Shown: positions 9,102 to 32,768 of the stretch, piece after piece
Position numbering within the stretch: the first letter of the stretch is position 1
Layout: each line of letters begins with the position of its first letter
Assembly (NCBI GenBank): GCA_050733075.1
Contig: JBOHSD010000014.1
Span: 13 to 64,012 of the forward strand
DNA: 64,000 bases
Source: Gemmatimonadales bacterium
Lineage (GTDB): Bacteria > Gemmatimonadota > Gemmatimonadetes > Gemmatimonadales > GWC2-71-9
Direction of reading: 5' to 3'
Program-made: the position numbers and the translations under genes
Notes under the pieces: generated by a model
Database searches by the model: none
What the model was told of the DNA's origin: nothing
Seen by the model: only the letters and a program-made list of their open reading frames with translations

Positions 9102-11609
9102 TTAGCCTACCACCAGATTCAGCAACCGATTCGGCACATACACCACCTTCCGAACCTCCTTCCCCTCCGTAAACCTCCGCACCGCGGAATCCTTCAGAGC
9201 AGCGGCCACGACCGTTTCCTCGTCGGCTCCGCGGGGCACGGTGACCTTCGATCGGGTCTTCCCGTTGACCTGCACCGCTATTTCCACGGTCTCTTCTACC
9301 GTGAGCCGCTCGTCCCAGGTGGGCCATCGCGCGTTGAAGATCGAGGAGTCGTGGCCCAGGCGCTCCCAGTTCTCCTCCGCAAAGTGGGGCGCGAAGGGGG
9401 CCAGCATGACGATCAGGTCCTCCACAATCTCGCGGCTGGCCACGTTCTCGGCGCGGATGGTGTTGACGAACTCCATGAGGGCCGCGATCGAGGTGTTGTA
9501 GCGCAGCTCCTCGAGGCCTTCCGTCACCTTCTTCACGGTCTGGTGCCGCTTGATGTCGACGAGTCGGGAGTCAGGAGTCGGGAGTCGGGAACGTCCGCCG
9601 TTGTCGCTGGCGGCCGTCTCGGTGACCAGGTTCCAGACTTTGTCCAGGAAGCGACGCGGCCCGCTGATCCCCTCGTCCCTGAAGTCGCCGCCCTCCTGGA
9701 ACGGGCCCAGGAACATGAGATACATGCGGAACGTGTCCGCGCCCCAGCGCGCGATGTACTCGTCCGGAATCACCACGTTGCCCCGCGACTTGGACATCTT
9801 GGCCCCGTCCTTCACGATGAGGCCGTGGGCCCGGAATTTCCGGAACGGCTCGTCGAAGTGAAGGTGACCGAGGCCGTGGAGCACCATCGTGATGAATCGC
9901 GAGTACAGCAGGTGCAGCACGGCGTGCTCGTTGCCGCCGATGTAGGTGGTCACCGGCAGCCATTTCCGGGTGCGCGCCGGGTCGAACGGCCGGTCGTCGA
10001 AGTCGGTGCTGGGATACCGTAGGAAGTACCAGGACGAGTCGAGAAACGTGTCGCTCACGTCGGTCTCGCGCCGGCTGCGCCTGCCGCAGATGGGACACGG
10101 GGTGTAGTACCACTCCTCGTGCCGGGCCAGCGGCGACACGCCGGTGTCGTCGGGCTGGAAGTCGTCGATCAACGGGAGCAGGACCGGCAGGTCCTTCTCG
10201 GGCACCGGGACCGCGCCGTGCTCGTCGCAATAGATGATGGGGATGGCAGGCCCCCAGTAGCGCTGGCGGGAGATGCACCAGTCGTGCAGCCGGTAGTTGA
10301 CGATGGCCTTGCCGGCGCCACGCTCGGCGAGCCAGGTGGTGATGGCGCGCTTGGCCTCGGGGACGGTGAGGCCGTCGAACTGGCCGGAGTTGACCAGGAC
10401 GCCGTTCTCGATGTCGACGTATGCCTCGGTAAGCGGAGTTTCGGCCCCTTCGCTGCGCTCAGGGTGACATACGACGCGGACGATCGGCAGGCCGAACTGC
10501 CGGGCGAATTCGAAGTCGCGCTCGTCGTGCCCCGGCACCGCCATGATGGAACCAGTGCCGTACTCCATCAGCACGTAATCCGCGATCCAGACCGGGATCG
10601 GCTTGCCAGTGGCCGGATTAATGGCGTACCCACCAGTGAACACGCCAGTCTTCTCGCGTTCACCGACTTTGCGGGAAACCAGGTCCTTCGCGGCAACGGA
10701 GCGACGGTAGGCATCTACCTCGGCCTTGCGGTCGGGAGTGGTGAAGGCGTCCACCAGCGGGTGCTCGGGAGCGAGCACCATGAACGTCGCCCCGAAAATG
10801 GTATCCGGGCGAGTCGTGAATACCCTGATCTCTTCCACCCTTCCCGTCTTTCCCGCCCTTCCCGCCTTTCCCGCAAACACGATCTCGGCGCCCTCGGAGC
10901 GACCCAGCCAATTCCGCTGGGCCAGCGTGGTGCTCTCGGACCAGTCCATCTTGGTCTTGTCGTCGAGGTCGGCCAGCAGCCGGTCGGCGTAGTCCGTGAT
11001 CCGGAAGAACCACTGCTCCAGCGTCCTCTGCTCCACCACCGAGCCGCAGCGCTCGCACCGCCCATCGATGACCTGCTCGTTGGCCAGCACCGTCTGATCC
11101 TTGGGGCACCAGTTGACCGCGGCCGCCTTCCGGTATGCCTTCCCTGCCTTCAGGAGTTGCAGAAAGAGCCACTGGGTCCACTTGTAGTACGCCGGATCGG
11201 TGGTGGAGAGCTCATGGCGCCAGTCGAACATGCCGCCGATACTTCGGAGCTGACGCCGGAAGTTGACGATATTGCGCGGGATCAACTCGGCCGGGTTGAC
11301 GCCGAGCTTGATTGCGTAGTTCTCGCTGTGAATGCCGAACGCATCGAAGCCGATCGGCTCGAACACGTCGTAGCCTTGAAGACGCTTGAAGCGACCGTAG
11401 ACGTCGCTGCCGGTGAAGGCGAACATGTTCCCCACGTGCAGCCCTTCGGCCGACGGGTAGGGGAACATCATCAGGTTGTAAAAGGGCCGTGCGGCCCGGT
11501 CGAGATCGGGCTCGTTGGTATGCCGCTCCGCCCAGCGCGACTGCCACTTGGCTTCGACCAGATCAGGACGGTAGGGCAGCACGTCGGTTGGTGTGGGATT
11601 CTGCTTCAC
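9102..11609 (-). CDS. leuS: Leucyl-tRNA synthetase
   Basis: FPYPSAEGLHVGN (HIGH region), VFTTRPDT, and KMSKSRGNV (KMSKS). Likely start is the GTG at 11609, just before YRPDLVEAKWQ. The ORF is open up to 11774. Confidence 0.95.
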   Translation of the reverse strand: MKQNPTPTDVLPYRPDLVEAKWQSRWAERHTNEPDLDRAARPFYNLMMFPYPSAEGLHVGNMFAFTGSDVYGRFKRLQGYDVFEPIGFDAFGIHSENYAIKLGVNPAELIPRNIVNFRRQLRSIGGMFDWRHELSTTDPAYYKWTQWLFLQLLKAGKAYRKAAAVNWCPKDQTVLANEQVIDGRCERCGSVVEQRTLEQWFFRITDYADRLLADLDDKTKMDWSESTTLAQRNWLGRSEGAEIVFAGKAGRAGKTGRVEEIRVFTTRPDTIFGATFMVLAPEHPLVDAFTTPDRKAEVDAYRRSVAAKDLVSRKVGEREKTGVFTGGYAINPATGKPIPVWIADYVLMEYGTGSIMAVPGHDERDFEFARQFGLPIVRVVCHPERSEGAETPLTEAYVDIENGVLVNSGQFDGLTVPEAKRAITTWLAERGAGKAIVNYRLHDWCISRQRYWGPAIPIIYCDEHGAVPVPEKDLPVLLPLIDDFQPDDTGVSPLARHEEWYYTPCPICGRRSRRETDVSDTFLDSSWYFLRYPSTDFDDRPFDPARTRKWLPVTTYIGGNEHAVLHLLYSRFITMVLHGLGHLHFDEPFRKFRAHGLIVKDGAKMSKSRGNVVIPDEYIARWGADTFRMYLMFLGPFQEGGDFRDEGISGPRRFLDKVWNLVTETAASDNGGRSRLPTPDSRLVDIKRHQTVKKVTEGLEELRYNTSIAALMEFVNTIRAENVASREIVEDLIVMLAPFAPHFAEENWERLGHDSSIFNARWPTWDERLTVEETVEIAVQVNGKTRSKVTVPRGADEETVVAAALKDSAVRRFTEGKEVRKVVYVPNRLLNLVVG
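9561..9590. repeat. GAGTCGG-family heptamer array inside leuS
   Basis: GAGTCGG GAGTCAG GAGTCGG GAGTCGG GA on the plus strand. On the coding strand it reads in frame as [10 protein letters not shown]. Confidence 0.85.
10445..10468. repeat. Half copy of the GTCACCCTGAG REP-like element inside leuS
   Basis: The coding strand reads GTCACCCTGAGCGCAGCGAAGGGG, translated CHPERSEG. It sits in a length-variable LeuS segment after HDERDFEFARQFGLPIV. Confidence 0.6.
10839..10874. repeat. Four tandem 9-nt repeats inside leuS
   Basis: CCTTCCCGT CTTTCCCGC CCTTCCCGC CTTTCCCGC encodes AGKAGRAGKTGR just before the conserved VFTTRPDT. Confidence 0.8.
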
Positions 11610-11811
11610 TCGCGTCTCGGTGCTCTTCCAGCGCTGGTTGGTCCCGCCCCCGGCCAGGCGCGGTTCCTCGAAGTGGGCGGCCTCGTAGAGAAGCCGTAAA
11701 TCTATTGCCGCTGCGGTGTTAGTGGTACCGGACCGGACCGGTTGACCCGCCGGTCCAACGGCCCGACCGTCCACCCGTCAGCGGGCCCCCCTCTTGCAAG
11801 GCTACGGCTCC

Positions 11812-31267: not shown

Positions 31268-31408
31268 GGGAGTCGGAAGTCTGGGGTGGAGAGTCGAGAG
31301 ACTACAGTCGAGAGTCGAAAGTCGAGAGTCGAAAGTCGAAGGTCTAAGATAATCTCGGGGGCCGGCCTGAGAGTCCGGTCGAGACTCCCGACTCCTGACT
31401 CCCGACTA
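31268..31408. repeat. Inverted heptamer-array element (GAGTCGG family) filling the serC-serA gap
   Basis: Left arm: 7-nt periodic GTCGA at 31307, 31314, 31321, 31328, 31335 (plus 31293). Right arm: GACTC at 31383, 31390, 31397 and GACTA at 31404. The serA TAG (31406-31408) is part of the last unit. Confidence 0.85.
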
Positions 31409-32653: not shown

Positions 32654-32768
32654 GGGAGAGTCGGGAGCTGGGAGCTGGATGTTGTAGGCCAGCAGACTTT
32701 CGACTGCGGACTCCTGACGAAGAGTCCTGACTTCCTACCCCCGACTCCCGACTCCCGACTCCCGACTA
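32654..32768. repeat. Inverted heptamer-array element (GAGTCGG family) filling the serA-DUF1015 gap
   Basis: Left arm GGGAGAGTCGGGAGCTGGGAGCTGG (32654-32678). Right arm GACTC at 32743, 32750, 32757 and GACTA at 32764. The TAG of the DUF1015 gene (32766-32768) is part of the last unit. Confidence 0.85.

Follow-up and report, generated by a model that had tools for sequence, protein, structure and literature searches.

A translated heptamer array in a permissive linker of an essential leucyl-tRNA synthetase gene from a Gemmatimonadales bacterium

The 64,000-nucleotide stretch of DNA analysed here (hereafter designated the window; contig JBOHSD010000014.1, assembly GCA_050733075.1) comes from a Gemmatimonadales soil bacterium, whose metagenome-assembled genome (MAG; hereafter G000) consists of 159 contigs with 3.67 Mb and 65.6% GC at 98% completeness. 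It contains leuS, the gene for leucyl-tRNA synthetase (LeuRS), and within the gene a short in-frame array of 7-nt repeats of the GAGTCGG/CCGACTC family, located as follows in window coordinates.

9102..11579, minus strand, leuS (leucine--tRNA ligase), 825 aa, P0002 in the public collection, assigned by Pfam and similarity to 1H3N
9546..9632, minus strand, hypervariable LeuRS linker of 29 residues, delimited by orthologue alignment and an AlphaFold2 (AF2) model
9561..9590, minus strand, in-frame heptamer array, residues 664-673 of the 825-aa product

Throughout, G numbers denote congener genomes, L numbers loci (L001 being leuS of G000), P numbers LeuRS proteins from metagenomes and C numbers the contigs of G000. 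The leuS product is a LeuRS judging from its similarity to the Thermus thermophilus enzyme 1H3N (E = 1e-243), the presence of the KMSKS motif and the Pfam domains PF00133, PF09334, PF13603 and PF08264; the gene is the sole full-length copy in G000, and its open reading frame (ORF) extends further upstream (9102..11774, minus strand). The plus strand at 9561-9590 reads GAGTCGG, GAGTCAG, GAGTCGG, GAGTCGG and GA, including three GGG tracts, and the sense strand of leuS accordingly reads TC, CCGACTC, CCGACTC, CTGACTC and CCGACTC; Tandem Repeats Finder (TRF) reports a period of 7 with 4.3 copies and 91% matches. The ten residues are encoded by TCC, CGA, CTC, CCG, ACT, CCT, GAC, TCC, CGA and CTC, of which four (CGA twice, ACT and CCT) are rare, each making up at most 8% of its synonymous set. 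Because these four rare codons occur in a genome with 82% GC at third codon positions (GC3), the array fits repeat DNA and not coding-shaped sequence. Thus, the in-frame array that a preliminary description had noticed from the letters of the window is confirmed by the sequence, TRF, translation and the LeuRS identity of the product. The G000 copy is a single arm and not a paired inverted array, and no hairpin was found in its predicted RNA fold (z = +0.66).

The linker that contains the array connects a helix ending in RRFLDKVW (...GPRRFLDKVW) with a helix starting with HQTVKKV (HQTVKKVT...YNTSIAALME). In an AF2 model built on 80 LeuRS sequences (mean predicted local distance difference test score (pLDDT), 91.6; predicted template modelling score, 0.86), residues 660-671 form a 12-residue coil with helices 635-659 and 672-690 on either side, and the pLDDT of 58 for the block 661-670 is the minimum of the entire model. 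The site aligns to T. thermophilus LeuRS where the helical anticodon-binding domain begins, in a stretch that is gapped and weakly conserved. Array-less congeners have linkers of 66-72 nt, as compared with 87 nt in G000 and up to 189 nt in other congeners, and the range across phyla is 51-111 nt (17-37 residues). The low-confidence coil, the poorly conserved site and the length variation across phyla argue that the loop is permissive. These data agree with the earlier view of a length-variable segment between conserved blocks, and the structural mapping that had been proposed as a check places it, by AF2 prediction, in a coil between two helices. In terms of this model, the array encodes part of a surface loop that is compatible with the LeuRS fold.

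In the window, serA is flanked on either side by further arrays of this family.

31270..31407, unstranded, intergenic inverted pair beside serA (GAGTCGA/GAGTCGG-type arm, then GACTCCC arm)
32725..32767, unstranded, same-family array on the other side of serA (TCCCGAC, 6.1 copies)

When at most one mismatch was allowed, the 14-mer GAGTCGGGAGTCGG matched 7 times in the window, against 0.09 matches expected from shuffles, the matches outside leuS being located at 31388 and 32741-32768, on either side of serA; the kinship of the leuS array with the serA flanks, asserted beforehand, is thereby upheld. The tandem unit recurs at many loci of the genome, which places the leuS array in the GAGTCGG family. 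Indeed, TRF detected 494 period-7 arrays in G000, of which 315 are robust (at least 3 copies and a score of at least 38) and belong to a small number of unit families, among which the ACTCCCG family (equivalent to GAGTCGG) ranks second in size with 45-52 arrays. Placed against ORFs called by codon usage in this analysis (about 80% of the genome coding), the 315 robust arrays are mostly intergenic (211), straddle ORF ends (81) or lie within 150 nt of such ends (19). The exact 30-mer of leuS occurs 8 times in G000, that is, in leuS and at 7 other loci, and its 21-nt core 24 times. Stop-free arrays were also seen at the 3' ends of called ORFs (C1:394316-394404, C2:285418-285475, C12:13942-13965, C3:166731-166755 and C4:806-836), and several G000 proteins may end in repeat-coded tails.

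Only three heptamer loci in G000 lie deep in a coding sequence, all belonging to the ACTCCCG family, so that the search for other in-frame arrays suggested by the preliminary description yielded two loci besides leuS. One is a transporter of the major facilitator superfamily (MFS; Pfam MFS_1, C5:92865-94056), which contains a complete in-frame inverted pair in its central loop (C5:93409-93500), with units of the GGAGTCG/GACTCCG type read as ...GRESGVRNSEASRAPSSPLLTPDSQLLAPDS... The other is a PHP-like membrane ORF (C8:93719-94913, L162) with a complete inverted pair in frame at C8:94101-94231. A Pfam search assigned no family to this ORF; it is a real conserved gene with orthologues in 16 of 18 congeners (L163-L177). 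Its ancestral 13-aa loop, TVAGLRPHxGPPV, has been replaced by in-frame arrays of 132 nt in G000, 141 nt in G011, 42 nt in G016 and 75 nt in G015 (unit CCAGTCG). Both of these copies form hairpin-type inverted pairs, as does the leuS allele L157 described below.

As for the orientation, the pure unit is translated into TPDSRLP in one direction and RESGVGS in the other, neither with a stop, a property found in 3 of the 15 tabulated families (ACTCCCG, AGCTCCC and ACTCTCG). Moreover, the orientation adopted in leuS is the one in which tandem CTGACTC variant units would yield TGA. The array is therefore free of in-frame stops, as had been stated, but its orientation, which had been taken to account for this, is not discriminating and was not dictated by stops, since the pure unit is stop-free both ways.

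To place the array among orthologues, we used about 50 congener genomes that include the linker part of leuS and the 120 closest LeuRS proteins from metagenomes. The distribution of heptamer-bearing leuS is patchy, with 6 of the approximately 50 congeners (G000, G011, G064, G081, G108 and, frame-broken, G015) and 17 of the 120 metagenome relatives. A typical array-less congener linker reads like GDACRTHADDEVRHETLVKY. The linkers of the 17 relatives have periodicities of PTPDSRL, ATRDSRL or SSQLPAP, and among the remaining relatives 7 carry a QSLR...AIPRQ sequence, 1 another repeat and 87 none. The sister alleles L002 and L003 are array-less, with a 23-aa ancestral linker (GD..R...H.V.VK) that contains no GACTC repeat and retains the H-A-V and G-D-T-x-R of the older linker. 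Compared with them, G000 has gained a net 18 nt, the 30-nt array standing in place of 12 nt of the older linker. The orthologue alignment thus identifies the array as an addition, and orthologues with identical residues at the site, which had been set beforehand as the outcome contradicting this, did not occur.

The alleles of other species extend this picture. The L157 allele has a complete inverted pair in frame at the same site, with four GAGTCAG/GAGTCGG units followed, after 17 nt of spacer, by five to six units of the CCGACTC type and with a predicted RNA hairpin of -73.9 kcal/mol (z = -5.1); no target-site duplication was seen at this insert, and no transposase was linked to the arrays. 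A 21-nt super-unit, CCGACTC-CTGACTC-CCGACTC, is repeated three times in L116 and about 4.5 times in L161. Overall, insert length ranges from 24 to about 100 nt, and the units vary among species (CCGACTC, GCGACTC and AGCTCCC types). The QSLR...AIPRQ sequence is encoded by GTCATTGCGAG...GCAATCC, a palindromic element with dispersed copies, which is present once or twice in frame in the linkers of L138 (G087, where the insert of this other kind amounts to 63 aa), P0035, P0037, P0044, P0052, P0057, P0084 and P0019, and has intergenic copies in G000 as well (e.g., C7:11707). The linkers of L010 (G030, from another family of the order) and P0070 contain GGG ACA GAG repeated three to four times (GTEGTEGTEG) and a 24-nt unit (THGRTDAQ, twice). 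Two further candidates were set aside: the TET codons upstream of the array as belonging to the insert or as what remains of an inverted arm (GAGACGG, one base off GAGTCGG), which is unproven because TET is also present in the array-less alleles P0020 and P0009, and the KR versus KY endings as clade markers, which are too simple because P0005 combines a G000-like linker with a KY ending.

The history of the array was examined on a maximum-likelihood tree of the 663 nt on both sides of the linker, the linker itself being excluded. All 11 heptamer-bearing genes fall within one 20-row clade, which also includes 8 genes without an array and 1 QSLR gene interspersed among them, and G000 clusters with the array-less L002 and L003 (support, 99/92). 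On this tree the array label must change at least 8 times, and at least 4 of these changes are imposed by branches with good support; monophyly of the bearers is rejected, the constrained tree being 236 log-likelihood units worse (p = 5e-6 in the approximately unbiased (AU) test). Simple loss cannot explain the pattern, because the array-less sisters keep ancestral residues that are missing from the array alleles. The patchy, non-monophyletic spread thus requires either exchange of alleles or repeated gain. Since array alleles of different sub-clades share an upstream TET..DNGG and an identical 30-mer (L001, L159 and L160), we favour homologous recombination of the linker allele between species over the alternative of repeated gain. 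In sliding windows along leuS the identity varies in a manner compatible with mosaicism, but this variation does not place the breakpoints. The preliminary description had taken the repeats to be, or to have been, mobile or recombinogenic; the patchiness does call for exchange or repeated gain, but no hallmark of transposition was seen, and ordinary homologous recombination involving part of leuS accounts equally well for the distribution.

Taken together, it appears rather likely that the array is a translated piece of the GAGTCGG/CCGACTC family, a tolerated passenger in a permissive loop that was seeded by copying or insertion, modified by slippage and either exchanged between species or gained more than once. 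A copy from the intergenic hairpin family, most likely a single arm or else the remnant of an inverted pair, would have been written into the leuS linker, where it would have landed in a disordered surface coil joining the last helix of the catalytic domain to the anticodon-binding helical bundle. Its survival would be owed to a total length that keeps the frame, a unit that is stop-free in both orientations and the permissive loop. Later changes in length presumably occurred by slippage in 21-nt steps (three units, corresponding to the seven residues PTPDSRL), accompanied by decay through point mutation, and the array linker would have passed between species of the genus by recombination, or have been acquired more than once, rather than simply been inherited. 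The peptide is read as a tolerated passenger; the copying event, its mechanism and the neutrality of the array are the parts of this account that we infer. Seeding by copying or insertion is supported by the sisters without a proto-repeat, by the 30-mer at 7 other loci and by the hairpin of L157. The preference of the preliminary description for insertion or copying over local slippage is therefore retained as regards the seeding, but its argument from the 7-nt unit fails, as three units make 21 nt and keep the frame (L116 and L161).

Several points weigh against this account. L001, L159 and L160 share the same 30 nt although their flanks are only 82-84% identical (65-68% at third positions), and such identity at this flank divergence has a chance of about 0.005 per pair. 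Divergence would be expected of a purely neutral passenger, and the identity therefore points to a very short tract that was exchanged recently, to homogenisation against the many genomic copies or to selection, each of which could account for it. Furthermore, copying is invoked without a mechanism, because no insertion hallmark was found and we know of no enzyme that writes such arrays. It is from relatives only that we infer the descent of the single-arm G000 copy from a hairpin element. In addition, the gene calls of the census are in-house ORFs based on codon usage and not a curated annotation, and the group for the AU test was chosen after a first tree had been seen.

Among the other explanations, selection for the insert, acting on the peptide or the nucleic acid (for instance as a spacer that is flexible, as a patch that binds protein or RNA, or as a GANTC cluster), would account for the identity of 30 nt in three lineages despite 16-18% flank divergence (P of about 0.005 per pair) and for the persistence of heptamer-coded linkers in 17 of 120 relatives. 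It is nevertheless unlikely, considering that the array is missing from most congeners, the nearest sisters included, that its length and unit vary freely (PTPDSRL, ATRDSRL, SSQLPAP), that the site, the lowest-confidence coil of the model, is empty or taken by an unrelated palindromic element in other species, and that rare codons are used. GANTC is neither enriched nor avoided in the genome, with an observed/expected ratio of 0.99-1.03, and restriction or methylation pressure on this motif gave no signal. An origin on the spot, by in-situ slippage from a short native linker sequence with no input from the genome-wide family, seems improbable to us. The 21-nt stepwise expansion in relatives indicates that slippage is active at the site, and the KY-type ancestral linker contains GAG GAC GAG ACN, faintly unit-like as is ...CTCCCGAGGACGAGACTCCGG... 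of L117. However, the sister alleles L002 and L003 hold no GACTC-like proto-repeat, the 30-mer is identical, variant unit included, at 7 other loci of G000, both inverted arms of L157 are beyond the reach of tandem slippage alone, and unrelated elements fill the same loop in other species.

Phase-variable simple-sequence repeats constitute the contingency loci of Haemophilus and Neisseria, which the leuS array resembles as a tandem unit, not a multiple of 3 in length, inside a coding sequence and subject to slippage. A contingency locus that flips leuS in and out of frame is hardly conceivable, however. The unit length and a frame-breaking 94-nt linker in one congener (G015, L141) are the observations that such switching would explain, but leuS is a single-copy, essential housekeeping gene whose off state would be lethal and for which no on/off logic is evident, the array is situated far inside the gene, no intact allele is out of frame, and four units are few for efficient switching. 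The G015 bin is 63% complete and contains two versions of leuS as well as other frame breaks, which makes an error or a dead copy likelier there. Likewise, there is very little to suggest that a repeat read was mis-joined into leuS during assembly. Repeats are error-prone in assembly and G000 is a MAG in 159 contigs, but the frame is unbroken, the same 30-mer occurs at the same place in two independent assemblies (L159, ERZ1758401; L160, JGI 3300051201), and related arrays are found in five other genome bins.

Among known systems, the passenger reading has its closest counterpart in the Rickettsia palindromic elements (RPEs; Ogata et al. 2000/2002), which, as summarised in PMC10969869, are translated in-frame palindromic repeats in housekeeping genes. 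The leuS array is likewise a dispersed short repeat, set in frame into a conserved gene without disrupting it, in a loop compatible with the fold, and relatives lack it at the site. RPEs differ in being about 150 bp long with a family consensus and a conserved peptide, whereas the leuS array is a variable-length 7-nt tandem without such a consensus; moreover, the G000 copy is a single arm and not a palindrome, and its loop is reused by different units and elements across species. The heptamers of Xanthomonas (GGGAATC) and Nostoc (GGGGA(C/T)T, short tandemly repeated repetitive (STRR) sequences) are mostly intergenic, located near ORF ends and often arranged in convergent pairs, and intragenic copies make up 7-11% in Xanthomonas when partial overlap is counted (Rehm et al. 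2015, PMC4692102). The G000 arrays share with them abundant tandem 7-nt units in a high-GC genome, the intergenic bias, inverted pairs and an intragenic minority, but in-frame arrays in essential genes, recurrence in one loop across species and 21-nt super-units are not described in PMC4692102, and the unit differs. Collectively, the leuS array behaves like an RPE-type passenger built from a heptamer simple-sequence repeat and not a contingency locus.

A second loop of the same protein also hosts repeats.

10838..10874, minus strand, second tandem repeat in leuS, TTCCCGCCT in 3.8 copies encoding AGKAGRAGKTGR, identified by TRF and translation

This repeat sits in a hypervariable loop after SEGAEIxF, at the entry of the editing domain. 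The loop varies from 6 to 53 aa among the 120 relatives and accommodates the QSLR...AIPQQ palindromic element as well as various repeats, among them 9-nt ones. Its unit is one base off TCCCGCCTC, an arm of a cassette on C3 that carries a gene of the PF05635 family (23S_rRNA_IVP/S23p; hereafter IVP). In the intervening sequences (IVSs) of 23S rRNA, an ORF for such a four-helix-bundle protein lies between inverted arms. A similar layout is seen for all nine PF05635 genes of G000 (L182-L191). Inverted tandem arrays flank each gene, built from a unit of 7, 8 or 9 nt that differs from cassette to cassette, and the cassettes are located as follows.

C2:104127-104690, IVP cassette
C2:324857-325403, IVP cassette with GAGTCGG/CTGACTC arms
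C13:7568-8126, IVP cassette
C1:717699-718343, IVP cassette
C5:184750-185326, IVP cassette
C3:179649-180272, IVP cassette
C2:89936-90486, IVP cassette
C12:44716-45506, IVP cassette
C22:5299-5908, IVP cassette

The cassette at C2:324857-325403 is the sole member with the GAGTCGG-family unit, and its ORF contains a premature in-frame TAG; it is a candidate for a gene-bearing form of the leuS repeat family. Unlike IVSs, the G000 cassettes are intergenic and not in rRNA, with tandem 7-9-nt arrays as arms, and the leuS array has no ORF and one arm only. Arrays flank both sides of 24 of 27 further IVP loci from 11 congeners in the same way. In a tree of the IVP proteins, a clade with 100/100 support comprises 14 of the 15 period-7 cassettes and nothing else, with sub-clades sharing unit types, and the period labels change 7 times on the tree as compared with 16.6 times in shuffles (0 of 200 as low). 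This link between IVP and unit is an association and not evidence of cause, because related cassettes share labels by descent. A bolder proposal, which we regard as doubtful, is that the arrays (heptamer and 8-9-nt, including both in leuS) might be gene-less derivatives of cassettes of IVP, an Avd-like four-helix-bundle protein, and that IVP might help to write, spread or maintain its cognate unit, which would repeatedly colonise permissive loops of essential genes and gene ends. The bracketing of the IVP genes in G000 and congeners, the agreement of the IVP tree with period and unit, and the single GAGTCGG cassette with its interrupted ORF would fit this proposal.

The finding means that translated repeat DNA can ride in an essential, highly conserved enzyme, and that small elements of several unrelated kinds land repeatedly in one LeuRS loop across the genus, the inserts showing, as a natural map, where LeuRS permits insertion. 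Selection acts here as a filter on a repeat family, the survivors being only stop-free families, frame-preserving lengths and 21-nt slippage steps, and the patchy, non-monophyletic linker is a sensitive marker of recombination between species. If the link to IVP were causal, it would offer a testable mechanism for the long-unexplained heptamer repeats and for the function-less S23p/IVP family.

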